In this document: piece after piece, positions 19,724 through 40,824 of the stretch
Position numbering within the stretch: the stretch's first letter is position 1
Layout of the letters: each line of letters begins with the position of its first letter
NCBI GenBank assembly: GCA_965213685.1
Contig: CBDBZY010000043.1
Coordinates: 1-64,000 of the forward strand
DNA from: a bacterium
Lineage (GTDB): Bacteria > UBA8248
Reading direction: 5' to 3'
Length of the DNA stretch: 64,000 nt
Notes under the pieces: generated by a model
Databases searched by the model: none
Told to the model about the DNA's origin: nothing
What the model saw: the letters and a program-made list of their open reading frames with translations, nothing else
Translations under genes and position numbers: made by a program

Positions 19724-19856
19724 ACCGCCGGAGGCGATGGCTGCGCTCTCCTCCCCCCGCCCGTCGTCGGGTATCGATGGAGACGCGGCGCAGCCCGCTG
19801 CCGGGCCGCGCGGCGTGGAGCGGGAGGGCGGCGGGCGGAGAAGGCGGTCCCCGCCC

Positions 19857-20939
19857 ATGAACGTTTCCAGACGCCGCATCCTGGGGGCCGCGTCCATGGT
19901 CGCGCCCCTGGCCGTCCTCGGGACGCCCGGTGCCGCGCGCGCCTCGATGGTCGGTCGCCTGTTCGACTGGCTGAACAACCGCCCCGTCGAGACGCCCGAA
20001 CCCGGGGAGGGAATCCTGGAGTTCGCCGCGCGCGTCCTGCCGGAGGTCACCGCGAACGAGAAATTCTACGTGCAGAGCATCGGCCCCGCCCCTCCCTCGC
20101 TGTCCCCGCGGCGGTGGCGGCTGAGAATCCGGGGCGAGGTGGCCGCGCCGCTCGCCCTTTCCTTGTCGGATTTGAACGCGCTGCCGGAGGAGACGGCCTG
20201 GGCGACGATCACCTGCATCGGCAATCCGGTGGGCGGCGGGCAGATAGGCAACGCCCTGTGGGGCGGGGTGCCGCTGCGGGGGCTCATCGAGCGCGCGGGC
20301 CTGGCCGGAGGCGTCCGCCGCTCGGTCTCCGCCCGCGTCGTCTTTCGCGCGGCGGACGGCTACCATGACTCCATCGACCTCGCACAGGCCCTGGACCCGA
20401 GAACCCTTCTGTGCACGCGCATGAACGGGGCGCCCCTTCCGCGGGCACATGGCGCTCCGCTCCGGCTCCTGGTGCCGGGCGTCTATGGCCTCAAGAACGT
20501 GAAGTGGATCGAATCCATCGAAATTTCCACGAAGGGGCACGGCGGCTACTGGCAAAGGCGCGGCTGGTCGGATGAGGCGGTCGTCGAGACGCTCAGCCGC
20601 TTCGAGGCGCCCAGAAGGCGCGTCCGGGTTCGCGCGCGCAGCATCTGGCTTGTCGGCTCCGCTTTCGCGGGGGAGCGGGGGATTCGCAAGGTGGAGGTGA
20701 CCTACGGCCAGGGGAGGCGCTTGCGGCCCTGGGCGCCCGCCCTGCTCAAAAAACCTCTCGGGCCTCTCGCGTGGAGCGTCTGGGCGTTTCCCATGCGGTT
20801 TCGGGAAAACGGGTTCTACCCGGCGCAGGTGCGGGCGGTGGACGGCGGCGGGGCGGTGCAGGCGGAGCGGATTTCCGACCCGCAGCCGGGCGGTGCGACC
20901 GGGCGGATGGGGCTGAGCGTCTCGGTGGGCGGGCTGTAG
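19857..20939 (+). CDS. Tat-exported molybdopterin-dependent oxidoreductase, sulfite oxidase family
   Basis: 'SRRRIL' twin-Arg signal; Mo-ligand Cys in 'ITCIGN', 'GNALWGGVPL', 'HGAPLRLLVPGVYGLKNVKW'. Confidence 0.88.
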   Translation: MNVSRRRILGAASMVAPLAVLGTPGAARASMVGRLFDWLNNRPVETPEPGEGILEFAARVLPEVTANEKFYVQSIGPAPPSLSPRRWRLRIRGEVAAPLALSLSDLNALPEETAWATITCIGNPVGGGQIGNALWGGVPLRGLIERAGLAGGVRRSVSARVVFRAADGYHDSIDLAQALDPRTLLCTRMNGAPLPRAHGAPLRLLVPGVYGLKNVKWIESIEISTKGHGGYWQRRGWSDEAVVETLSRFEAPRRRVRVRARSIWLVGSAFAGERGIRKVEVTYGQGRRLRPWAPALLKKPLGPLAWSVWAFPMRFRENGFYPAQVRAVDGGGAVQAERISDPQPGGATGRMGLSVSVGGL

Positions 20940-27598: not shown

Positions 27599-28576
27599 TT
27601 ACATCATCCCCGCTTCTTTCCAGTAGCGGACCGCACCCGGGTGCAGCTGGAGCTTCTTCAGGCCGCGCAGGCCGGTTTTCTTGGTGATGAATTTTCCGGC
27701 CGGGTGGTATTTGATGATCTGCTTGTGGTTGTCATACATGGCTTTGACAATCGCATAGGCGTTGTCGTTGCTCATCTTGCTGTTGGTCATCAAGGCCCAC
27801 ATCTGCCCCCAGCTGATGACGTCCTTGTCGTAGCCGGGGATGGAGCCCGCCCGCACGACGTCGCGCACGATGCCCGCCTCGTTCTCGGCCAGTTTCTTGA
27901 TGGTCGCCTCGTCCGGGCCGAAGAAGTGCAGCTTGCCGGAGAGCGTGCGCGCGAGGTCCATGTACACGGGCGCGGGAACGCCGCCGTTGAGGAAGAAGAA
28001 GCCGGCGTCCACCCTCTGGTCCTTGATGGCGGCGGAATTCTGGTTGTTGTTGAAGAATTCGCGCTTCACTTTCTTGAACATGCCGCTGTGCTTGAGCGCA
28101 ATCTGCGTGACGATGTAAATCGAGCCGCCGCGCCCGCCGACGACGAATCTTTTGCCTTCGAGGTCAAACCAGTTCTTGATCCCCGTGGACTTGAAGGTGG
28201 TGTAGACGATCGTCAGCGGATAGAGCGCCCCGAGCGCCAGGACGTCCTGGGGCTTCTTGAAGGGCTTTCTTCCCGTTTGCCCCCACGCGACGGCCGGTGC
28301 CGTGGCCATGCCCATGCGGAAGGGCTGGTTCTTGTTCTTCTTCTGCAGGATGCGGACGTTGGCGGTGGAGCCGCCGGTGACGGATGCGGACACCGAAATC
28401 TTTCCGCCCGAGTTGTCCGTGATGACTTTGCCCATGGCGGTGCCAATCTCGAAGGTGGCGCCGCCGGGCTGGGACGTTCCCAGAAGGATTTTGGCGGCCT
28501 CGCCCGCCGGAGCCGTGCCGAGGGCCAGGGCCAGGCCCGCCGCCAGCGTGATCAACCGAAGCGTGAATTTCCTCAT
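27599..28576 (-). CDS. TAXI family TRAP transporter solute-binding protein
   Basis: Signal peptide, 'GTSQPGG', 'TGGSTAN', 'DLEGKR', 'LHPGAVRYWKEAG'. Confidence 0.92.
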   Translation of the reverse strand: MRKFTLRLITLAAGLALALGTAPAGEAAKILLGTSQPGGATFEIGTAMGKVITDNSGGKISVSASVTGGSTANVRILQKKNKNQPFRMGMATAPAVAWGQTGRKPFKKPQDVLALGALYPLTIVYTTFKSTGIKNWFDLEGKRFVVGGRGGSIYIVTQIALKHSGMFKKVKREFFNNNQNSAAIKDQRVDAGFFFLNGGVPAPVYMDLARTLSGKLHFFGPDEATIKKLAENEAGIVRDVVRAGSIPGYDKDVISWGQMWALMTNSKMSNDNAYAIVKAMYDNHKQIIKYHPAGKFITKKTGLRGLKKLQLHPGAVRYWKEAGMM

Positions 28577-28884
28577 TCGCATCTCCTTTTTTTGCAGACA
28601 AAAAAATAAAGTGAACTGCACAACCCGAAGCCGGTTTCGGTTCGGGCGCGTCGAAACGCATGTAGTCAAAACGCATGAACAATCATGGCGGTGCTTGTGC
28701 GCTTGTCGATTCCAGACATACTACACCAAAATGGCGTGGTGTGGTCAAGTGCCAAGTTTGTCGGATGAAACCTCGGGAGCCGCTGGCAAAACAACGGGCG
28801 CATCCGGTAGAATGGGCGCGTTCCAGCCAAGTGCCTCGTTTCGCCAGCAGATGAATCCACCGCCGGTGGAGAGAGAGGAGACAC

Positions 28885-31800
28885 ATGAAAGCGGAATCAG
28901 ACCCCACCCAGTCGGCACCCCTCGTGCGGGCTCTGGTTTTCACCACCTCCTGGCTGTGCGTGCTGTCGGGCTTGTATCACATCTCCGCCGTCTATCTGCG
29001 GCCCCTGCCGGGCGAGATGCACCCCAACATGCACATGCTACTGGCCTACGCCATCCTCTTGATTGGCGGTGCCGGGGCGATGCCCGAAATTTACGGGGAC
29101 AAGATTCGCCGGCTGAAGTTTCTTCCCGTTTTGTATGTTCTTTCCCTGGTTCCCGCCGTCATCTTCTACTATTTCGTCCATGAGATGGGGGAGGAGTGGT
29201 CCGACGCGAGCGTCTGGTGGGCATACGCACTCCCGTTCGTCATCTGGATAGCGATGATGGTCGTCGAGAAGTCCTGGCTCGCTCTTCTGCTCTGGGTTCT
29301 GGGCTTTGTCCCGGTGCCGATTTTGTTCCTCTACTGGGATTCCCTGCCGGAAAGCACGCATGAGCCCACGCTCTGGTGGCTGTTGATCGCGTGCGCCGCC
29401 ATCCCCACGATGTGGACCCTGTTCGCCATCTTCTTCCGGCCCGCAGCCGGCGTGAGAAAGGCGGCCGGCTTTCTCGCCGTGTTTTTCGCGGCACTCATCC
29501 TGGGGGGATGGCGGGTGGGCCTCTGGGCCGGGCAGAGCGACGAGGTGCGGAGCGTCTTCTACCTCTGGCCGGCGGCCATACTCGCTTTTCCGCTCTTCTG
29601 GGCGAAAAAACGCATCAAGGAGGTGTTCGAGGATTACCCAGCGCATCCGTTCCCGGCCGGGTTCACGATTGGCCTGAACGCGGGGATGCTCTTCTTCGTG
29701 GCGACCGCCTGTCTGTATCTCTTCTACTATCACGAGGACATGGTGGATCGCCCCGGTGCCCCGACGATCGGCGACGCGCGCGTCGGCTTCGTCATGCTCA
29801 TCGTCGCCCTCGAACTGACGCGGCGCTGCTTCGGCCCCCCGCTCCCCACCCTGGCGGTCATCTCCTTCTCCTACGGGGTCTGGGGCAACCTGTTTGCGCC
29901 TCCGTTCGGACACGGCGGCCACACCTGGCTCGAGCTCCAGGCGAAGCTCTCCACCGATTTCATCGGAGGGGTGCTGGGGTTTCTGGTCGTCATCTCGGCC
30001 ACGTTCATCATCATGTTCCTGATCCTGGGGGCGTTTTTGCACGAGTCGGGCGCGGGCCGCTTTTTCGTGAACTTCGCCCTGGGCCTGTTCGGCAAGATGC
30101 GCGCCGGGGCCGGCCTCGCGGCGGTGGGCTCGAGCGCGCTCATGGGCACGGTGTCGGGCAGTGCCTCCGGCAACGTCGTGACCACGGGCACGTTCACCAT
30201 CCCCCTGATGAAGCGCATCGGCCTGAGTCCGCACATCGCCGGGGCGGCGGAGGCGGCGGCCAGCAGCGGCGGGCAGATCATGCCTCCCGTCATGGGGGCG
30301 GGCGCCTTCATCATGAGCGAACTCATCGAGGTGCCGTATTTCCAGATCATCGGGTACGCCACCATACCGGCCATCCTGTATTTCACCATCGTGGGGATCA
30401 ACATCCACTTCGCGGCGGGTGCGCTGAACATCCAGCCGCTGCCCAGCTCCGAGATTCCGAGCTGGAAGGACGAACTGAAAAACGGATGGTTCTATCTCGT
30501 GCCCCTGGCGTTTCTGGTGTATTTCCTGTTCGAGGGCAGAACGCCCGTGTTCGCCGGCGTCATGTCGGTCTTCATCATGGTGGGCGTCTGGTTCTACCGG
30601 AATGTGACGGAGTTCCTGGGCGGCTTGCGGCGGGGCGAGAACGCCGTCGCCGACGAGATATTCGTTTTCGTGCCGGTCGCTTTCTGGGGATTCGTCTTCT
30701 TCCTGTTTGCCCTGCTCGCGATTTTTGAGTGGGCCTCCGCCCTGTCGTTGGGGATGCACGGAGCACCGACCTGGGGCGGCGCCGTCCGGGCCGCCCTGTG
30801 GCTGGGCGCCATCGGGTTTGTCCTGATTCGGGTTTTCACCCGCCTCTTCTCCTGGGTGGACCCATTCTGGAGGGAGATAGAGCGCAGCTGGCTCGCCGTC
30901 TTCCCGATCACCTTGCTGGGCCTGTGGAGTGCTTTTGGCTGGTCTTCCGGCGTGGCCGGGGCGGCCATCGTCCTGGCGCTGCTCTGCGGGTGGGCCGTCT
31001 TCAGAGGGAACGGGGCGCAGCCCGCCACGACCATACCCTGGTATTTCGCCGCGATCTGGGTGGGCGCCTATTACGCGCAGCAGGGGATCTACGCGCTTCT
31101 CCCTGCGGTCGCCGATTTCGGCGAATGGTTCATCCCTTTCGGGTTTATCTATGACGGCCTCATCTTCTTCGGGCTGGCCGTCCTCCTCCAGAGGGCGATT
31201 TTCGCGTTCATCCCCCCGGGGTCCGCGACGAGCGGCCCGACCCCGAGCCTCCCGCAGGTGCTGGCGGTGTCCTGCAACCCGTTCACCTACCTGATGCGGG
31301 CGGAGAAGACGGGCGAGACGGGCGCGGGCGTGCGGGCGGCGCAGAGCGCTTCGGGCTGGATTTTCAGCATCCGCGACGCCTTGCGGGTGGGGGGCAGGCA
31401 AGGGGCGGAGTTCGCCGTGACGCTCGCCACCATCGAGGTCGTCGTTCAGGTGCTCACGATCACGGGCGTGGGCAACAAGTTCGCCTTCATGATAGAGGCC
31501 CTCGCCAATGACATATGCCTGTTCGGCACAGCCGCCGCCGGCGGGTGCGCGTACTACATCGGCCTCGACGGCTTCTTCGTCGCCCTGCTGCTCACGGCGG
31601 TTTGCTGCGCGGTGCTGGGCATGGGGATGCCGACGACGGCGGCCTACGTGCTGCTCGCCATCCTGGGCGGGCCCGTGCTCATCAAGCTCGTCGGCCCCGA
31701 GCTCGCGCACGTCTACGGCGCGGAGTGGGCCAAGGAGTTTGTGGCCGCGAAGGGAGACCGCGTCGCCGCCCACATGTTCATCTTCTATTTCGCCATCCTC

Positions 31801-32199
31801 TCCGCCATCACGCCGCCCGTGGCGATAGCCTCGCTCGTGGGGGCCAAGCTGGCCGGGGCGCCCTATTTCAAGACGTCCATGATGTCCCTGCGCTTCGCCA
31901 TCGTGGGCTTCATCGTGCCGTTCTTGTTCATGTTCGACCCGGCTCTGCTCACGTTCGCGCATCCGCTGCGCGTCGCCCTCTCCGCCTCCATGACGCTTTT
32001 GGGTTTTGTCGCCTTCTCCGCGGGAACGCAGGGCTGGCTTCTGGGCAGGCTCCACACATACGAGCGCATTCTCCTGTTCGTCTGCTTCATCACGCTCATT
32101 TTGTTCATCATTTTCTTCAGCTTCGCCATGCTGATAGTCGGCCTGGTTTGCGGAGGGGTCCCCCTCGTCCGGCAGGTACGGGACATCAGGCGCGCCTGA
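28885..32199 (+). CDS. TRAP transporter fused 4TM/12TM permease (unusually long)
   Basis: 'SSALMGTVSGS', 'TGTFTIPLMK', 'ASSGGQIMPPVMGAGAFIM', 'LGMGMPTTAAY', 'HMFIFYFA', 'ITPPVA'. Confidence 0.93.
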   Translation: MKAESDPTQSAPLVRALVFTTSWLCVLSGLYHISAVYLRPLPGEMHPNMHMLLAYAILLIGGAGAMPEIYGDKIRRLKFLPVLYVLSLVPAVIFYYFVHEMGEEWSDASVWWAYALPFVIWIAMMVVEKSWLALLLWVLGFVPVPILFLYWDSLPESTHEPTLWWLLIACAAIPTMWTLFAIFFRPAAGVRKAAGFLAVFFAALILGGWRVGLWAGQSDEVRSVFYLWPAAILAFPLFWAKKRIKEVFEDYPAHPFPAGFTIGLNAGMLFFVATACLYLFYYHEDMVDRPGAPTIGDARVGFVMLIVALELTRRCFGPPLPTLAVISFSYGVWGNLFAPPFGHGGHTWLELQAKLSTDFIGGVLGFLVVISATFIIMFLILGAFLHESGAGRFFVNFALGLFGKMRAGAGLAAVGSSALMGTVSGSASGNVVTTGTFTIPLMKRIGLSPHIAGAAEAAASSGGQIMPPVMGAGAFIMSELIEVPYFQIIGYATIPAILYFTIVGINIHFAAGALNIQPLPSSEIPSWKDELKNGWFYLVPLAFLVYFLFEGRTPVFAGVMSVFIMVGVWFYRNVTEFLGGLRRGENAVADEIFVFVPVAFWGFVFFLFALLAIFEWASALSLGMHGAPTWGGAVRAALWLGAIGFVLIRVFTRLFSWVDPFWREIERSWLAVFPITLLGLWSAFGWSSGVAGAAIVLALLCGWAVFRGNGAQPATTIPWYFAAIWVGAYYAQQGIYALLPAVADFGEWFIPFGFIYDGLIFFGLAVLLQRAIFAFIPPGSATSGPTPSLPQVLAVSCNPFTYLMRAEKTGETGAGVRAAQSASGWIFSIRDALRVGGRQGAEFAVTLATIEVVVQVLTITGVGNKFAFMIEALANDICLFGTAAAGGCAYYIGLDGFFVALLLTAVCCAVLGMGMPTTAAYVLLAILGGPVLIKLVGPELAHVYGAEWAKEFVAAKGDRVAAHMFIFYFAILSAITPPVAIASLVGAKLAGAPYFKTSMMSLRFAIVGFIVPFLFMFDPALLTFAHPLRVALSASMTLLGFVAFSAGTQGWLLGRLHTYERILLFVCFITLILFIIFFSFAMLIVGLVCGGVPLVRQVRDIRRA

Positions 32200-32238: not shown

Positions 32239-33477
32239 ATGCTCTTCCACAAAGAACGCGCGCTGGACTTCATGGAGAGGTTCGCTCTCGACGCGCTGGT
32301 CGCGACGACGCGGCACAACGTCTTATATCTCTCCGGCTTCCAGGGTTGGGCGCAATACACCTACGGCGACGCCACGACGGAGACCTTCGCGCTGTTTTTC
32401 CGGGATGCGGACTCTCCGCCGGCCCTGATACTCTCCCGGCAGGACGAGACCTACTATGCGGCGCAGGGCTCCTGGATAGAGGACGTGCGGGGCTACGGCC
32501 CCCGCTCGGCACTGGAGATGGAGCCCGGGGAGCGGGGGGTCGGCGAGGAGGAGAGGAACTACGTTTCCCTGATCGCCGAGGACGCCCCGCGCGAGGCGAA
32601 CCCGGCGGATGCGCTGCTCCGGGTGTTGCGGGAGCGCGGCGTATCGGGCGGCAGGGTGGCGCTCGACCAGGAGGGAATTCGTCCGGCCACGCGCGGCGGC
32701 GTGGAGGCGGCGTTGCCGGGCGCGTCCTTTCTGGACGCCTCGCACCTGTTCCGGCTGATTCGCCTCCAGAAGACGAAAGAGGAGCGCGAACGAATGCGGG
32801 CCGCGGCGCTTCTGAACGAGCGGGCGGTCGTCGCGTTCCACAAGGAGATGGCCGTGGGGCGGACGGAGCGCGAGGTGGCGAGCCACTACTACCGCACCGT
32901 GGCCGCGGGGGAGGGGAAATGGAGCTGGTTTCATTTGGGAGGAGGGAGGCGCTCCGCCTCCATTTTCCCGCCCTCCGACAGGAGGTTTGAGCCGGGCGAC
33001 GGGTTTTTCTTCGACGCGGGAATGCGGCTGAACCACTACTGCGCGGACGTGGGCTGCTGCGGTTCGTTTGGCGAGCCGGACGCCGGGCGCCGGGCGCAAT
33101 GGAAAGCGATTCAGGCGGGGCTTGAGGCCGCACTCGGCGTGATCCGCGCCGGGGTGCGCCCCTCGGAGATATTTCGCGCGGCGGTCTCGGCGGCGAAAAA
33201 GGCGGGCCTGCCCCGCTACAACGGCGCCTTCTGCGGGCACACCATCGGGGTCGAGGCGCGCGAGCTACCCTATACGCTGAGCGAGCCGGTTCCGCTCGAC
33301 GATCCGTTTTTGCCGGAGACGTCGGACATTCCGCTGCCCGCAGGCGCCGTCCTCTCGGTGGAGTTGCCCTCCGGCAGGTTCGGCGAGGGCGGCGTCCACG
33401 CGGAATACACCGTCGAGGTCACCGAGACGGGCATGGAGCACCTCGGAGAGCGCGTCCGCGAGCACGTGGTGGTGTAG
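32239..33477 (+). CDS. M24 family (Xaa-Pro peptidase/creatinase fold) hydrolase
   Basis: 'NVLYLSGF', 'RLQKT..E', 'FDAG......ADV', 'GHTIG', 'SVELP'. Confidence 0.85.
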   Translation: MLFHKERALDFMERFALDALVATTRHNVLYLSGFQGWAQYTYGDATTETFALFFRDADSPPALILSRQDETYYAAQGSWIEDVRGYGPRSALEMEPGERGVGEEERNYVSLIAEDAPREANPADALLRVLRERGVSGGRVALDQEGIRPATRGGVEAALPGASFLDASHLFRLIRLQKTKEERERMRAAALLNERAVVAFHKEMAVGRTEREVASHYYRTVAAGEGKWSWFHLGGGRRSASIFPPSDRRFEPGDGFFFDAGMRLNHYCADVGCCGSFGEPDAGRRAQWKAIQAGLEAALGVIRAGVRPSEIFRAAVSAAKKAGLPRYNGAFCGHTIGVEARELPYTLSEPVPLDDPFLPETSDIPLPAGAVLSVELPSGRFGEGGVHAEYTVEVTETGMEHLGERVREHVVV

Positions 33478-34646: not shown

Positions 34647-35387
34647 ATGTCGTATTTCTACAGGACGGACGAGATGGAGAAGAACCTCGCGGGGGCGGCC
34701 TACAGCTCGGCGAACGGCGCCTGGGTGCAGGGGGAGCGGCTCATCTTCGGGAAGATGCGGATGCCCGCCGGCACGCGCTCGAACGCGCACGCGCATCCCA
34801 ACGAGCAGTTCGGCTACTGTCTCGCCGGCAGCGTTCGCCTGGAGGTCGAGGGCGAGACGCACGTCCTCGCACCGGGGCACATCGCCTACCGGCCCGCGAA
34901 CGCCGTGCACGCCGCCGAGGTGTTGGGCGCGGCGGACTACGAGTTCATCGTGGCGAAGGATACGGCCGCCGGCATCGCGGGAACTCCCGCCGAGATGCCG
35001 GTCGATCCCGATCGGGGAGGAGGGGAGGGCGCAGGCCGCCTCCCCTATTTCTACGACACCGAGGCGATGGAAAAGGGTCTGGCGGGCGAGGATTACAGCC
35101 CGACCGAGGGTGCCTGGGTGACGGGGGAGCGGATCATTTTCGGCAAGATGCGGATTCCCGCCGGCGGGCGCGCCGAGCCGCACGCGCACCCCAACGAGCA
35201 GTTCGTCATCGTCCTCGCCGGGGCCGCGCGCATGACGATCGAGGGCGAGACCGCCACGCTCGCCCCCGGCGACATCGCCCACATTCCGGCGAATGCGGTG
35301 CACGCGGGCGAGATTCCGGGCGATGCGGACTACGTCTTCGTGACGGCGAAGGACACCTCCTGGGGCATCCAGGGCGTGAAGGTGTGA
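34647..35387 (+). CDS. Tandem double-cupin protein
   Basis: Two similar halves, each with 'H.HPNEQF' and 'PANAVH'. Confidence 0.88.
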   Translation: MSYFYRTDEMEKNLAGAAYSSANGAWVQGERLIFGKMRMPAGTRSNAHAHPNEQFGYCLAGSVRLEVEGETHVLAPGHIAYRPANAVHAAEVLGAADYEFIVAKDTAAGIAGTPAEMPVDPDRGGGEGAGRLPYFYDTEAMEKGLAGEDYSPTEGAWVTGERIIFGKMRIPAGGRAEPHAHPNEQFVIVLAGAARMTIEGETATLAPGDIAHIPANAVHAGEIPGDADYVFVTAKDTSWGIQGVKV

Positions 35388-35448
35388 GGGGAGTATAAGA
35401 GCGAGACGACGGGATTTTCTGTTCGACCGCGGAAACGACCCCCCTCCC

Positions 35449-36075
35449 CTACGGGGCGAGGCGCTCCCTCCGCCAGCCGCCGTCCGCCTCCCGCGCGTAG
35501 CGTATGCGGTCGTGGAGGCGGCTCTCCCGGTGCTGCCAGAACTCCACGGAGCGGGGCTTGAGGATGTAGCCGCCCCAATGCGGCGGCCTCGGCACCGCAC
35601 CGCCCGCGTATTCGGCCTCGAGGGCGCGCGCCCTGTGGTCGAGGAACGCGCGATCCGGAATCGGCCGGCTCTGCGGCGAGGCCCACGCGCCCAGCCGGCT
35701 ACCGCGCGGGCGGGAGGCGAAATAGGCGTCCGAGACGCGCGCGGGCAGCCTCTCCACGCGACCCTCCGCGCGCACCTGCCGGCCCGGCTCCTTCCAGTAG
35801 AAGACGAGAGCGGCTCTCGGGTCGTTCGCCAGCTGCGCACCCTTGTCGCTCTCGTGGTTGGTGAAAAAGGGGAAGCCCGCATCCGCTATTCCCAGGATTT
35901 GCGGGTCCTTGTAGAGGACGACGCGGGCGGCGGGCGCGCCGTCGGGGCGGATGGTGGCGAGCGTCATCGCGTCTTCCCGATGGACGCCGGCGCTCCGCAT
36001 CTGCGCATACCAGCGGCGAAACTGGGCGATGGGGTCGCGCGCGACGCTCCCCGCATCCAGGGCTTCTTCCGCCAT
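35449..36075 (-). CDS. pdxH: Pyridoxamine/pyridoxine 5'-phosphate oxidase
   Basis: 'DPIAQF..W', 'AMTLAT', 'FFTN.ES.KG', 'YFASRPRGS', 'EFWQ.R..RLHDR', 'RLAP'. Confidence 0.93.
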   Translation of the reverse strand: MAEEALDAGSVARDPIAQFRRWYAQMRSAGVHREDAMTLATIRPDGAPAARVVLYKDPQILGIADAGFPFFTNHESDKGAQLANDPRAALVFYWKEPGRQVRAEGRVERLPARVSDAYFASRPRGSRLGAWASPQSRPIPDRAFLDHRARALEAEYAGGAVPRPPHWGGYILKPRSVEFWQHRESRLHDRIRYAREADGGWRRERLAP

Positions 36076-36227
36076 CTGCCGGATCAACTCTTCATTCGTC
36101 GGGTTCACTGGCTGCAATAATTCCTCATGTCGTCGCGTTTGTTCGGCGGCGGTGGCTGCCCACCCGTCTGGCCGCGCGTCTGCGCCTGCCCACATGAACG
36201 CCCGGGCGGTCGCGCGCCCATATCAAA

Positions 36228-36908
36228 TCATTGGCGGGCGGGCGTTGGGGGAGCGGGGTCGTTCGGGTGTGCGCTGTCCGGGGTGACGTAGGGGGCCGTC
36301 ATCTCGAAAATCTCCCGGGTTCGGCAGTATTTCGGCCCGCCTAGCCTGCCCACGGGCCGGAGTCTTTCCGGGTCGATGTATTTTTTGCCGCCGGCGACCG
36401 TCAGGATGAGGTCCTCCCGCACGTGCCATCGGAGCACCTCGCCGATGATCAGGTGTGTCACCCATTCGTCGCCGAAGGGGATCATCCGCTCGAAGCGGCA
36501 CTCCATCGCCAGGGGCGCGTCCTTGATGCGCGGGGCGGCCACCAGGTCGGAGGGGAGGGTCTCGAGGCCGGTCGCCTCGAACTCGCTCTCGTCCGGGCCG
36601 TAGTTCCCGGCGCTCCGGTTCATCCGCTCCTCCCAGCCGTTCGCCACCGCGTGGATGACGTAGCCCTTCGTCTCCAGGATGTTGCGCGTCGTGTCCTTGG
36701 GTTTTTTCTCGCGCTCGCCGACGGAGATGGACGCCATGGGCGGATAGTGGGAGACCATGGTGAAGAAGCTGAACGGAGCGAGGTTCGTCCCGCCCGCCGC
36801 ACTCGCCGTGCTCACCCAGGCGATGGGGCGGGGGACGACGGAGCCGATGAGGAGGCGGTAGGTTTGCTGGTGGTCTATCTCGCGGGCGTCGAAGACGCGG
36901 TAGCTCAT
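36228..36908 (-). CDS. Flavin reductase-like FMN-binding protein
   Basis: 'YRLLIGSVVPRPIAWVST', 'NLAPFSFF', 'KDTTRNI', 'PVGRLGG..Y'. Confidence 0.9.
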   Translation of the reverse strand: MSYRVFDAREIDHQQTYRLLIGSVVPRPIAWVSTASAAGGTNLAPFSFFTMVSHYPPMASISVGEREKKPKDTTRNILETKGYVIHAVANGWEERMNRSAGNYGPDESEFEATGLETLPSDLVAAPRIKDAPLAMECRFERMIPFGDEWVTHLIIGEVLRWHVREDLILTVAGGKKYIDPERLRPVGRLGGPKYCRTREIFEMTAPYVTPDSAHPNDPAPPTPARQ

Positions 36909-36912
36909 TTTT

Positions 36913-38010
36913 TCATCCTTTGGCGAGGGGCGCGAGCCGCGCGGGCTGCGTGTCTTCCAGGAGCGGCATGACCTCCCGGCCGAAAATCTCGGCTTCCTCG
37001 AGATGGGGCCAGCCCGAGAGGATGAAGTTCCGCGCGCCGGCCTCCACGTATTCGCGGAGTGCGGCGGCCACCATGTCGGGGGTGCCCACCAGCATGGCGG
37101 CGGCACCCGAGCGCACCTTGTTCACGCCCATCCAGAGGGTCTCCGTCAGCCAGGGGGAGCCGCTCGCGTAGAGTTCGTTCATGCGCCGCTGCCCCTCGCT
37201 CTCCGAGCGGTTGCGCTGGTCCGCCCAGACGCCGGTGTTCTCGAGGGCGCTGTTCTCCAGCAGCGCGTGGGCGGCGCGCCTCGCCTCTTTTTGGCTCTCC
37301 CGGCAGAGGACGTGGAGACGAAGGCCGAAGCGCAGGTCGTCGCGGCCCGCAACCTCCGCGCGGCGCCTCATGTCCGCGGCGTCCGCCGCGACCTGCTCGG
37401 GGCGCACCGCCCACATCATGTGGACGTCTGCGTGCTTTGCGCCCACGCGGCGTCCCGCCTCCGAGCTGCCCCCGAGGTATATCGCGGGATGCGGCTTCGA
37501 TACGGCGCTGGCGTAGAGGGCGGCGTTTTCGATTTGGTAGTAGCGGCCGTCGTAGCTGACGGGCCCCTCGTTACGCCAGAGCGCCCGGATGATGTCGAGA
37601 TACTCCTCCGTCCGCGCGTAGCGCTCCGCGTGCGCCAGGTGGTCGCCGTATCGCCTCTGGTCCAGAGGCGTTGATCCGGTCACGACGTTCACCGTGAGCC
37701 GTCCGCCCGTGATGGCGTCGTAGGTGTTCGCCTGCTGGGCGGTGAGCACGGGACTCATCAGCCCGGGGCGAAAGGCCACGCAGAACCTGATGCGCTCGGT
37801 TCGTCCCGCGACGGCCAGCGTGATCATCCAGGCGTCGAGGCAGTGGGAGCCGGTGGGGACGAGGAGGTTGACGAAGCCGGCGGCCTCCGCCGCGCGCGCC
37901 ACCGCGCTGATGTAGTCCACGGTCGGGCGCCGCTCGGGAACCCTGGCGTTGATGGCGTGCCCGTCGCCGTATCTTCCCGTCGGCAGAAACCAGGCGTATT
38001 CCGTGGTCAT
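36913..38010 (-). CDS. LLM-class flavin-dependent monooxygenase (SsuD/MsuD-like)
   Basis: 'WFLPT..DG', 'LLVPTG..C.DAW', 'VAFRPG', 'GRLTVNVVTG', 'YLGGSS', 'FILSGWPHLEEA'. Confidence 0.9.
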   Translation of the reverse strand: MTTEYAWFLPTGRYGDGHAINARVPERRPTVDYISAVARAAEAAGFVNLLVPTGSHCLDAWMITLAVAGRTERIRFCVAFRPGLMSPVLTAQQANTYDAITGGRLTVNVVTGSTPLDQRRYGDHLAHAERYARTEEYLDIIRALWRNEGPVSYDGRYYQIENAALYASAVSKPHPAIYLGGSSEAGRRVGAKHADVHMMWAVRPEQVAADAADMRRRAEVAGRDDLRFGLRLHVLCRESQKEARRAAHALLENSALENTGVWADQRNRSESEGQRRMNELYASGSPWLTETLWMGVNKVRSGAAAMLVGTPDMVAAALREYVEAGARNFILSGWPHLEEAEIFGREVMPLLEDTQPARLAPLAKG

Positions 38011-38100
38011 CGGGCTTCCTCAGCCGCGCGAGATGCGCTCCGAAAAGGCGACCCGCAACGCACCCGCGCACCGCACCGGCCAGCCACCGCGCCCCGCCGG

Positions 38101-38751
38101 CTAGGCGGACGCCGCCGCCTCGGCCTCCTGCTCGGCGAGGAGGGCGTCGAGCAGCGCCTGGACGCGCTCCGCCTCCATCCAGTCCGCCTTGTAGGCGATG
38201 CGCCCCGCCTTGTCCACGATGAACGTCATGTTCGGCATCCGGCCGAAGGCGCGCACGACGCTCTCGTCGAGGTCGTCGATGAGGACGGGCACCTTCATGC
38301 CGAACTCCGCCACGAGCTCCTCCGCATACCGCTTCTTGTGGGCGTAGGAGGTGTGCTGGGCGTATTTCTTGAAGTGGCGGGTTTCCCCTGCGTGGGGTTC
38401 TTTCGAATAGACGACGAAAAACGCCACGTCCTTGTCCCGATACTTCTCCTGCAAATCCTCGACGCCGGCCACCTGCCGGCGATAGGGGGGTCAGGTGATG
38501 GCGCCGAACTCGATGACGATGTTCTTCTCGCCGATGAAGTCCGCGAGGCGGAAGGAGGCGTCGTCCGTGGATTTCAGCCGCACGTCGGGCATCGGGTCGC
38601 CCGGCTGCAGGGTGTTGCGGAACGCCTCCTTGCGCTCCTTGCGAAACCCCATGAGGTTGCGCTTCAGGAATTTCCACTTGTCGATGTAGAACGCGCTCCA
38701 GAGACCCATGAGCGGGCCTGGCGGCCTGTCGAACTCGTCGAATTGTCGCAT
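38101..38751 (-). CDS. Deiodinase-like thioredoxin-fold selenoprotein (Sec at the UGA 38493-38491)
   Basis: The two annotated ORFs are in the same frame, separated by a single TGA in 'IEFGAIT*PPYRRQ'; followed by 'FFVVYSKEPH' and 'PN..FIVDK.GRIAYK'; GGAG RBS before the ATG at 38751; SECIS-like hairpin. Confidence 0.85.
38463..38481 (-). promoter_or_regulatory. Bacterial SECIS-like hairpin
   Basis: CGCCGGC-AGGUG-GCCGGCG, a perfect 7-bp stem with the loop starting 16 nt after the in-frame UGA and G in loop position 2. Confidence 0.7.
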
Positions 38752-39002
38752 GGTCGCTCCAAAGTGGCGGGGGATGAAAAAATATCCCCCCATTAGAGAC
38801 GAACGGCGCGCGGAACGCAAGCGCGGACGCTCCGCCCGGTGCGCGGCGCCCGCCCCGTCTCTCTTCTCTCCCTCCATCAAATTCCCGTATCCCGGAGAAT
38901 TTGGTATGCTCTCCGCGCGGCGTCCGGAAGCCCCTTCCGTTCCGCTGGGGGGTGCGCGCCGGGGAGAGGCGCCCGCCGCCTTCCTCCCGGAAGGAGGGGA
39001 TG

Positions 39003-40824
39003 ATGAACAAAAAAAACGCAGTTTTCCATCGGCTATTTCCTGTTCATCTTCCTCATCATGTCCGTGATTCACACGCTCTTCTTTCAGGGCGCCCGCTACC
39101 AGCGCATTCCCTACAGCGAGTTTCGCGTCCTGGTGAAGTCGGGCGACGTGGAGCGGGTGGACATTCGCGGCGACCGCCTCCAGGGGGTTTTGAAGAAGTC
39201 CGACGCGGACGGCCGGCAGAGATATTTCGAGACGGCGAAGGTGCCGGACCCTGCGCTCATCGCGTTCCTCGAGGAGGCGGGCGTCGTCTTTCAGGGCCAG
39301 TTCGAGCCTCCCTGGCTGGTGCAGGTGTTCACGAGCTGGGTGCTGCCGCTAGGCGTCCTCTTCGCCATCTACGCCCTGGTGATGCGGCGGATGGGCCCGG
39401 GCCAGGGGGTGATGGCCTTCGGCCGGAACAAGGCGAAGATATACGCGCAGCAGGAGGTGGACGTTCGATTCTCCGACGTGGCCGGCGTGGACGAGGCCAA
39501 AGAGGAGCTGGCGGAGGTGGTGGATTACCTGAGAAATCCGGATCGCTACCTGCGCCTGGGCGGCAAGATTCCGCGCGGCGTCCTGCTGGTGGGCCCGCCC
39601 GGCTGCGGAAAGACGCTGATGGCCAAGGCCGTGGCGGGAGAGGCGGAGGTCTCCTTCTTCAGCATCAGCGGCTCGGAGTTCGTCGAGATGTTCGTGGGCC
39701 TGGGCGCCGCGCGCGTGCGCGACTTGTTCGAGCAGGCGATGGAGAAGGCCCCCTGCATCGTGTTCATCGACGAGCTCGACGCGCTGGGCAAGGCGCGCGG
39801 CGTCGGGAACCTGGCGGGCGGCCACGACGAGCGGGAGCAGACGCTCAACCAGCTCCTCGTCGAGCTGGACGGCTTCGACACCCGCCGGGGGGTCATCATC
39901 ATGGCGGCGACCAACCGGCCGGAGATTCTCGACCCTGCCCTCCTGCGTCCGGGGCGCTTCGACAGGCAGGTGCTGGTGGACAGGCCGGACCTCCTCGGCA
40001 GAAAGCACATCCTGCGGGTGCACACGAAGGCGCTGGTGCTCGGCGTGGACGTGGACGTCGACCGGATCGCGGAGATGACGCCCGGCCTCTCGGGGGCCGA
40101 CCTCGCCAACCTGGCGAACGAGGCCGCGCTCCTCGCCGCCCGCCACGACCGGGACGCGGTGGTGATGGCCGACTTCGAGGAGGCCTTCGAGCGCGTGTCG
40201 GCGGGCCTCGAGAAGAAATCCCGCGTCATGACGGCCGAGGAGCGCCGCCGGGTGGCCTACCACGAGCTCGGCCACGCGCTGGTGGCGGAGCTGGCGGGCA
40301 CGGCGGACCCGGTGCAGAAGGTCTCGATCATCCCGAGGGGGCTGGCCGCCCTGGGCTACACCCTCCAGCGCCCCACCGAGGACAGATACCTCCTCTCCCG
40401 CAAGGAGATGGAGGACAGAATCGCCGTGCTCCTCGCGGGCCGCGCGGCGGAGGAGGCGGTTTTCGGAGAGGTCTCCACGGGTGCGCAAAACGACCTCCAG
40501 CGCGCCACCGACATGGCCGACTCCATGGTGACCGAATACGGCATGAGCGCGCGCTTCGGCCCCCACGCCCTGCGGGGGGCGCCGCGTCCGCTGTTTCTGG
40601 GCGGCGGGATGAACGGCGCGGCGGCGTCCGACATCAGCGAGGCGACCCGCCGCGAGGTGGACGAGGAGGTGGAGAAAATCCTCGACGGCGCGCATGGACG
40701 CGCCCTGGGGATACTGAAGGAGCGGCGCGGCGACTTGGAGGCGCTCGCCGCGCGCCTGCTCGAGGAGGAAACCATCACGGGCGACGAGCTGCGCGCGGCC
40801 CTGGGGGTGGCCCGCAAGGCGTGA
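39003..40824 (+). CDS. ftsH: ATP-dependent zinc metalloprotease FtsH (frameshift in the A run near 39009-39016)
   Basis: '[14 protein letters not shown]', 'GPPGCGKT', '[11 protein letters not shown]', 'YHELGH'; removing one A restores '[15 protein letters not shown]'. Confidence 0.95.

Follow-up and report, generated by a model that had tools for sequence, protein, structure and literature searches.

The stretch of DNA analysed here (the window, 64,000 nucleotides (nt)) comprises positions 1 to 64,000 of contig CBDBZY010000043.1 (C43) from a bacterial assembly assigned to UBA8248 (GCA_965213685.1, here G000; 7.97 Mb in 71 contigs, G+C content ~66%). A block of four genes lies on its minus strand, between positions 35,449 and 38,751. 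The first of these in reading direction encodes a deiodinase-like selenoprotein of 216 amino acids (aa), called Sel (38101..38751), which is recognized by Pfam when its in-frame TGA is translated as selenocysteine (Sec, U); the gene starts with an ATG at 38751, preceded by GGAG, and ends with a TAG at 38101-38103. It is followed by a luciferase-like monooxygenase (LLM) that resembles the SsuD/MsuD enzymes dependent on reduced flavin mononucleotide (FMNH2) (36913..38010, 365 aa, PF00296 and TIGR03565), by a split-barrel flavin reductase (36228..36908, 226 aa, PF01613) and by the pyridoxamine/pyridoxine 5'-phosphate oxidase PdxH (35449..36195, TIGR00558). On the plus strand, the divergent FtsH gene (39058..40824, TIGR01241 at 768 bits) bounds the block upstream, and a convergent bicupin (34647..35387, Cupin_2 in two stretches, 112.6 bits) bounds it downstream. 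The block probably consists of three units with separate functions that lie side by side in one genus: a usually monocistronic Sel gene, a two-component monooxygenase and a housekeeping pdxH.

The spacers within the block, all read on the minus strand, are short: 90 nt between Sel and the LLM (38011..38100), 4 nt between the LLM and the reductase (36909..36912) and 32 nt between the reductase and PdxH (36196..36227). An original prediction, made from the DNA alone, had described four same-strand genes with spacers of 90 and 4 nt, and the re-read coordinates agree with it. It had also seen no terminator by eye; a consensus scan of the minus strand from 35200 to 39200 likewise returned zero terminator-like sites, the scan giving three overlapping plus-strand sites inside the LLM gene (shuffle mean 2.6). 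The identities that it had proposed, i.e., a Sec-containing deiodinase-like protein with a thioredoxin fold, an LLM next to a flavin reductase gene, and PdxH, were borne out by matches to Pfam and NCBIfam models and to PDB chains. Four genes on one strand with short gaps are an ordinary arrangement, which proves nothing by itself.

Within the genus, the arrangement is common. By coordinates, Sel lies next to the LLM in 21 of 22 genomes, and the order Sel-LLM-reductase is found in all 17 genus loci that were fetched; PdxH comes next in 15 of them, while the other two hit the contig edge. FtsH (14/17), FolE2 and the cupin also recur around these loci, which points to the general collinearity of close relatives. 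The gaps vary widely: Sel and the LLM are 81 to 972 nt apart, while the reductase and PdxH seem to overlap at one extreme and are 2,536 nt apart at the other. In 11 of the 17 loci, a terminator-like GC hairpin of 9-10 bp followed by TTTT is present 55-70 nt past the Sel stop (311 nt in one locus). In alignments and folds, the spacer of the window keeps just the 3' arm and the T-run (GGGTCGCC-TTTT) of this hairpin. Moreover, five of the 17 loci carry a gene for an HNH endonuclease of 250-280 aa between Sel and the LLM, on the same strand as both and with a low GC content of ~0.54 (for example, L036:7834-8607, L044:6107-6955 and L047:6088-6864). This gene resembles a mobile element that has inserted at one fixed position past the terminator hairpin of Sel. 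Between the reductase and PdxH, most relatives have an open reading frame (ORF) of ~155 aa with a signal-peptide-like start, which is absent from the window and has no match in Pfam or NCBIfam (L039:9747-10220; equivalents in L036, L041, L043-L045 and L050), and one genus locus has an IS1182 transposase at this place. Separate transcription units are likely in these relatives, as judged from the hairpins and insertions.

The linkage itself can also be broken. In G009, a member of the genus that is 99% complete, the LLM, the reductase and PdxH lie ~300 nt from FtsH, and Sel is missing there. In the sister genus (G023), a 71% orthologue of Sel precedes an F420-dependent PPOX-class gene and a molybdenum oxidoreductase of the DMSO-reductase family; the LLM orthologue (71%) is found by itself on a separate contig of 38 kb, where the 11 kb read contained no Sel and no reductase gene. 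The Sel-LLM linkage is, hence, genus-bound and breakable. The original prediction had coupled Sel to the monooxygenase in one module, and it had named two observations that would speak against this: absence of the linkage in related genomes and separate transcription units. In the relatives, the first applies and the second probably does, so the proposed coupling is not supported.

The LLM matches Bac_luciferase (PF00296) at 231.9 bits and is aligned over its full length with MsuD (7jv3, 289.9 bits, E 2.6e-85, residues 4-354) and SsuD (1m41, 244.5 bits, E 1.7e-71). It scores below the cut-offs of the SsuD equivalog models (315.6 against 518.2 for TIGR03565 and 318.5 against 510 for NF001939), so the identity of its substrate is not fixed by the models. 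The reductase matches Flavin_Reduct (PF01613) at 95 bits, and its nearest solved relative is NtaB (3bpk, E 3.2e-38). It is adjacent to the LLM in all 22 genomes of the genus, at no more than 43 nt in 17 relatives (one with a 10-nt overlap), and is likely its partner. Because of the full-length likeness to MsuD and SsuD and the adjacent reductase, it is reasonable to read the pair as a putative two-component FMNH2-dependent monooxygenase, probably a desulfonating one, to judge from its relatives. A 57% paralogue of the LLM in another genus (G024) has an SsuE-type FMN reductase next in line. Three further SsuD-like LLMs of G000 (on C31, C40 and C45) have no Sel beside them; Sel matches occur only on C43 and C29.

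PdxH passes TIGR00558 with 241.2 bits (cut-off 180) and is the sole match in the whole genome, and hence a housekeeping enzyme. This speaks against its place in the four-gene pathway originally proposed.

The LLM family is strongly expanded, with several SsuD-like paralogues in tandem in the relatives G001-G033. One LLM homologue, 43% identical to that of the window, has a single in-frame TGA across its full-length match (G020:C1:3320710-3321801 and G014:C4:3120211-3121302); either an LLM that contains Sec or a pseudogene would be conceivable. One TGA is also present in some flavin-reductase homologues (G033:C127 and G032:C1:3669141).

The in-frame UGA of Sel (38491..38493, minus strand) corresponds to residue 87, in the motif FGAIT-U-PPYRRQ, and aligns with the Sec-to-Cys position of the Dio3 chain 4tr3. 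A TGA is found at the same codon in all 87 distinct homologues extracted from 112 loci, and its flanking residues are invariant among 45 homologues. A Sel match was obtained in 36 of 41 genomes (G000 and relatives), and the matches that run across the active site contain the TGA. The record titles of the 87 homologues refer to metagenome-assembled genomes (MAGs) labelled Nitrospinota/Nitrospinaceae, one 'Candidatus Tectomicrobia', Acidimicrobiia, Acidobacteriota and Verrucomicrobiota; the two halves of Sel on either side of the TGA are thus conserved in frame across at least four phyla as labelled. In a quick tree, clade A consists of the genus of the window and two sister rows, clade B is ~62% and clade C ~43% identical, clade D unites class-level relatives with Acidimicrobiia and Verrucomicrobiota, clade E holds two class-level genomes, and there is one Acidobacteriota row.

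Ten nt past the UGA begins a hairpin like the bacterial selenocysteine insertion sequence (SECIS) (38463..38481, minus strand), with the stem CGCCGGC/GCCGGCG and the loop AGGUG, which is present in the minimum-free-energy fold. A hairpin with a G in a small apical loop just 3' of the UGA is what is expected of a bacterial SECIS. Alone, it is not significant (z-score -0.68). The equivalent helix in 47 homologues was named by hand and then counted: 72.6% of the cells are paired, and the covariation is 0.253, against 0.110 in shuffled alignments, a value reached by 0 of 500 shuffles. Both sides have changed in four of the seven pairs, the pair 21-34 being CG in 20, GC in 17 and GU in eight sequences. 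A helix slid by +1 scores 0.186, because clade A is shifted by one base in register relative to the other clades. RNAalifold did not recover the helix from the 47 post-UGA segments and placed four invariant pairs elsewhere. Given this miss and the protein constraint on the same codons, the RNA evidence is supportive, not decisive.

The genome encodes the machinery for Sec, with selA (564.2 bits), selB (369.8) and tRNA-Sec (78.6) all above their cut-offs. No tRNA was found in a search of the selA and selB loci; tRNA-Sec was detected elsewhere, with Rfam RF01852. The only match to selD above the cut-off (172 bits, G000:C31:101342-102000, loci L010, L013 and L015) is split over three frames, which cover model positions 38-168, 160-187 and 189-241. 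The split, which bears on the ability to make Sec, reflects either a frameshift in the assembly or a gene that is truly broken. In L123, a clade-D Sel gene is convergent with selB, recognized by its SelB winged-helix domains (L123:10697-12622), and the same holds for L069 by cluster; in those genomes, Sel sits at a Sec-machinery locus. Loci L123, L069 and L070 have a gene of the AIR-synthase type close to Sel, which was considered as selD and rejected, as it gave no tblastn match with the selD locus of G000.

Public protein sets mostly contain the post-UGA fragment of Sel: 39 of 42 matches are 118-126 aa long. These short entries, and the split selD of G000, would suit a reading in which the UGA is a true stop, with the halves being a pseudogene or two small genes and no selenoprotein being made. 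Such a reading is contradicted by the in-frame conservation of both halves and of the TGA codon (87/87) across the labelled phyla, by the invariant flanks and the covarying hairpin, by the presence of selA, selB and tRNA-Sec, by the Sel homologue that adjoins selB, and by the full-length model, which folds at a pLDDT of 91; it is almost certainly wrong. The Sec reading is well beyond chance and Sel is a true selenoprotein, whose family is mis-annotated as a fragment of ~120 aa in most public protein sets.

Several thioredoxin-fold families match Sel. The Pfam scores are 53.6 bits for Redoxin (PF08534), 52.6 for T4_deiodinase (PF00837, gathering score 27) and 45.9 for AhpC-TSA, similar values that do not discriminate on their own. 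The NCBIfam model NF038285 ('deiodinase family protein') gives 92.7 bits against a cut-off of 250, only the C-terminal 147 of its 347 positions being matched. A profile of ten sequences has mouse Dio3 (4tr3) as its best solved relative (63.9 bits, E 1.4e-16), followed by ResA (4nmu, 52.2 bits) and Dio2 (9h48, 52.1 bits). Compared with 4tr3, a Sec-to-Cys mutant chain, Sel has FGaiT-U-PP for FGSCT-C-PP, YvkEpH for YIEEAH, and a later His in common. The complete deiodinase (Dio)-type set of T-Sec-P-P, Y-x-x-E-x-H and the later His is, thus, present in Sel. Among 45 homologues, T86, U87, P88, P89, Y115, H120 and H133 are invariant, and E118 is conserved in at least 90%. In Dio3, these are presumably the residues with proton-relay and active-site roles.

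The AlphaFold (AF2) model of Sel (pLDDT 91.2, pTM 0.89) has three short helices packed on the domain. In Foldseek, ResA, TlpA and Bcp come first by E-value (~4e-10), Bcp peroxiredoxins being among the top matches and LsfA (7kuu) at rank 46, while Dio3 and Dio2 give the longest alignments (174-175 columns) and the highest TMq (0.62-0.63), at 23-24% identity. The dithiol chemistry of the CxxC type known from ResA and TlpA was rejected for Sel: its motif is U-P-P-Y, and the second Cys is missing. There is no Cys in the whole protein and no conserved Cys column among the homologues. The peroxidatic motif of peroxiredoxins is T/S-x-x-C, and this context is not present in Sel either, where A-I-T-U places Thr at -1 and Ala at -3. 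A membrane anchor was not found, the maximal Kyte-Doolittle mean over 19 residues being 0.96 and that of the N-terminal windows at most 0.03. In the absence of any Cys or hydrophobic segment, Sel is predicted to be a cytoplasmic one-Sec enzyme of the deiodinase/peroxiredoxin-like branch, for which CxxC chemistry would be impossible.

By these matches, Sel is assigned to the prokaryotic deiodinase-like selenoprotein family (PF00837). In a profile search of 1.84 billion representatives, 11,479 proteins passed E<=0.001; the number fell to 1,760 at E<=1e-10 and to 64 at E<=1e-30. In eight full-length database relatives that were inspected, the Sec position holds Cys in seven and Ser in one. New for the family are the motif free of a second Cys, the presence of Sec in all 87 close homologues and the occurrence of up to three paralogue clades in the lineage labelled Nitrospinota.

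The surroundings of Sel in other clades were compared by clustering the neighbours within 6 kb in 37 representative loci, the gene calls in foreign loci being rough. The commonest neighbours are M24 hydrolases (11 loci), GFO/IDH/MocA dehydrogenases (10), putative cyclases and EamA proteins (nine each), SDR and ABC ATPase genes (eight each) and LLMs (seven). The latter, found by a Pfam search, as tblastn with the LLM of the window misses distant ones, occur in the window itself, in clade C (L063, L124, L125 and L128) and in clade E (L074 and L075). No LLM lies within 6 kb of Sel in the 11 loci from Acidimicrobiia, Verrucomicrobiota and Acidobacteriota. The LLMs of clades C and E are of the F420 type (TIGR04024-like, and TIGR03560 with 278 bits against a cut-off of 231) and are convergent to or divergent from Sel; they are not SsuD-like operon partners of it. 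At the clade-B loci (L093-L096, L107 and L110), the flanking genes are on the opposite strand or end upstream of Sel, and for most Sel genes of clades D and E, the closest gene upstream points away from Sel. LLM genes are numerous, with 28 to at least 41 matches per relative genome (genus and most class-level relatives, 2.9-4.6 Mb). G000 has 31 LLM and 14 M24 matches in its 7.97 Mb, five of the 14 M24 genes having an LLM within ~7 kb.

The second Sel paralogue of G000 (G000:C29:17770-18378, L063:7001-7693) is 43% identical and belongs to clade C. In the genus and two further genera, Sel genes of this clade are found in convergent orientation to an F420-type LLM, at a distance of 0.2-0.8 kb; at the G000 locus, a gene for a 505-aa AAA_15/AAA_21 ATPase and a 175-aa ORF are inserted between the two. 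In two clades, TauE/SafE-family proteins of the sulfite-exporter type are encoded 0.1-3.3 kb downstream of Sel (L132:7907-8962, L074:10935-11750 and L075:5561-6376), and in L074, L075 and L092, Sel has a molybdopterin oxidoreductase gene as a neighbour. These neighbours are hints of a sulfur or oxyanion theme.

Around the block, the window contains further genes of interest here. A hydrolase of the M24 (creatinase/prolidase) type (32239..33477, plus strand, PF00557 and PF01321) is located 4.6 kb from Sel, on the opposite strand. A TRAP transporter had been pointed out nearby, and it is real, consisting of a TAXI-type binding protein and a fused DctM-type permease of 1104 aa (27599-32199); its genes are on the strand opposite to Sel, no closer to it than 5.9 kb. 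Between 16468 and 20939, TctC/TctB/TctA transporter genes are followed by a molybdoenzyme of the sulfite-oxidase family (19737-20939). The size of the G000 assembly exceeds the 2.9-4.6 Mb of the 22 same-genus genomes, with a contamination given as 3.7% and a single copy of clade-A Sel; either the bin is a composite or the genome is indeed larger.

In the reading that we consider probable, the three units would work as follows. UGA-87 would be decoded as Sec by SelB and tRNA-Sec at the hairpin just downstream. Sel would act as a one-Sec thioredoxin-fold reductase without a resolving Cys, so its oxidised selenium would have to be recycled by an external thiol or by thioredoxin. The PF01613 reductase would use NAD(P)H to make FMNH2, which would be spent together with O2 by the SsuD/MsuD-like LLM; the most likely reaction of the latter is the cleavage of the C-S bond of a sulfonate, releasing sulfite. 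PdxH would serve as the housekeeping oxidase of pyridoxal 5'-phosphate salvage.

Some observations weigh against this separation. The short spacers, the single strand and the window scan empty of terminators make co-transcription possible at this particular locus. A loose functional link between Sel and LLMs is also possible, given this lack of a terminator and the LLM and M24 neighbours of other clades, of other subfamilies as they are. For both Sel genes of G000, the nearest LLM is less than 3 kb and the nearest M24 gene less than 5 kb away, for which the chance is roughly 2-4% per locus by a post hoc estimate, and Sel paralogues are close to an LLM in three clades and to an M24 gene in four, including Acidimicrobiia. 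LLM and M24 genes co-cluster among themselves, which weakens this proximity signal. Furthermore, the sister-genus comparison relies on one informative genome, the fragmented MAG G023. Sel genes, thus, tend toward catabolic islands, a real but weak post hoc signal that defines no pathway.

The joint pathway, or single operon, of the original prediction goes much further: Sel would reductively dehalogenate or reduce a halo-aromatic or organosulfur compound and the LLM pair would oxygenate the same molecule, fed by the transporter, the M24 hydrolase and the cupin. The gene order kept in 17/17 genus loci and the tight, terminator-free packing on one strand in the window (90-nt and 4-nt spacers) would suit such an operon, yet the linkage is gone in G009 and the sister genus, and the relatives have their terminator-like hairpins (11/17) and HNH insertions (5/17) at the very junction concerned. 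The Dio-type residues of Sel would suit a dehalogenation. LLM and M24 genes do recur near other Sel clades, but these LLMs are F420-type (TIGR04024-like, TIGR03560) instead of SsuD-like, and the acidimicrobial, verrucomicrobial and acidobacterial loci have none within 6 kb (0/11). With PdxH being a single housekeeping copy, this pathway appears quite improbable. It is also unlikely that Sel is an oxidant-handling partner of the monooxygenase, in which case free FMNH2 would yield H2O2 and the upstream Sec protein, similar to a peroxiredoxin, would protect the cell in the manner of LsfA. The breaks in the linkage (G009, sister genus, hairpins) apply equally here, and the other SsuD-like LLMs of the genome do without a Sel neighbour. 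The scores of Sel on Redoxin and AhpC-TSA beside T4_deiodinase, the Foldseek ranks of Bcp and LsfA and the single redox residue, as in 1-Cys peroxiredoxins, agree with a peroxidase, whereas the Thr immediately precedes the Sec (T-U), the deiodinase arrangement, and does not occupy the -3 position that it has in peroxiredoxins. Sel clades are near several kinds of flavin or deazaflavin enzymes, which would be in line with a protective role. An adjacency of lsfA to the ssu genes in Pseudomonas is presumed and lends this reading no weight. In the data reported for Pseudomonas aeruginosa, sulfur starvation induces LsfA together with msu/ssu (PMC12581299).

A broader possibility is that the always-Sec Sel proteins use selenium to remove halogens reductively, or to reduce some other labile heteroatom bond, in natural marine compounds such as bromo- or iodo-aromatics, and have been recruited repeatedly into catabolic islands, the Sel-LLM pair being one such recruitment. 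The partners in these islands could be flavin or F420 enzymes (LLM, PPOX-class), M24 hydrolases and GFO-type dehydrogenases. The reading could hold in view of the up to three paralogues per genome, the lack of a resolving Cys and the Dio-type residues kept, and the Sel-bearing lineages are presumably of a marine or sponge type, as hinted by bin names. At present it seems a rather doubtful proposal. Three separate units, juxtaposed within one genus, are the more probable reading.

A conserved operon partner would have given the first real clue to deiodinase-like chemistry. Bacterial selenoproteins of this kind have been listed since 2005, with no function assigned in the entries of either source (PMC1088965, PMC13188914). 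The four-gene "pathway" is local synteny and, hence, a poor sole guide for assays. What can be used is that the protein is strictly a Sec protein here, with one redox residue, predicted to be cytoplasmic, with the catalytic residues of deiodinases kept and with a tendency toward catabolic islands. These facts lead to a well-defined and direct biochemical question, i.e., whether Sel is a dehalogenase or a peroxidase.

A deiodinase-like family of prokaryotic selenoproteins was reported from the Sargasso Sea by Zhang et al. in 2005, who proposed a redox role other than the deiodination of thyroid hormones in their account of the family (PMC1088965). The entry of a 2026 review still lists it, giving no function (PMC13188914). 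As a member of this family, Sel shows its features: Sec in a protein of bacterial origin, a SECIS hairpin immediately past the UGA, a thioredoxin-like fold, a Pfam deiodinase match and Cys-containing homologues. Its motif T-U-P-P-[YF]-R-R-Q, without a second Cys, differs from the 'UxxC' of the example in the table of the review (PMC13188914).

With the vertebrate Dio2 and Dio3 (9h48 and 4tr3), Sel shares the best profile match, the longest structural alignment and the active-site residues. It differs from them in having neither an N-terminal membrane anchor nor a Cys, in its own conserved N-terminal region PPGP..G.WS..Y and in coming from an organism without thyroid hormones. LsfA, a 1-Cys peroxiredoxin of P. 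aeruginosa that is described as linked by regulation to sulfonate monooxygenases (PMC12581299), has the thioredoxin fold and a single redox residue in common with Sel. In LsfA, this is a Cys in a peroxiredoxin motif, whereas Sel has a Sec in a deiodinase-type motif. The LLM, finally, is like SsuD and MsuD in its full-length alignment and in the flavin reductase gene 4 nt downstream. This reductase is a split-barrel protein of the PF01613 type (NtaB-like), unlike the SsuE (PF03358) of the SsuD/MsuD-SsuE systems, and unlike the ssu systems, the locus has no SsuABC transporter beside the LLM.

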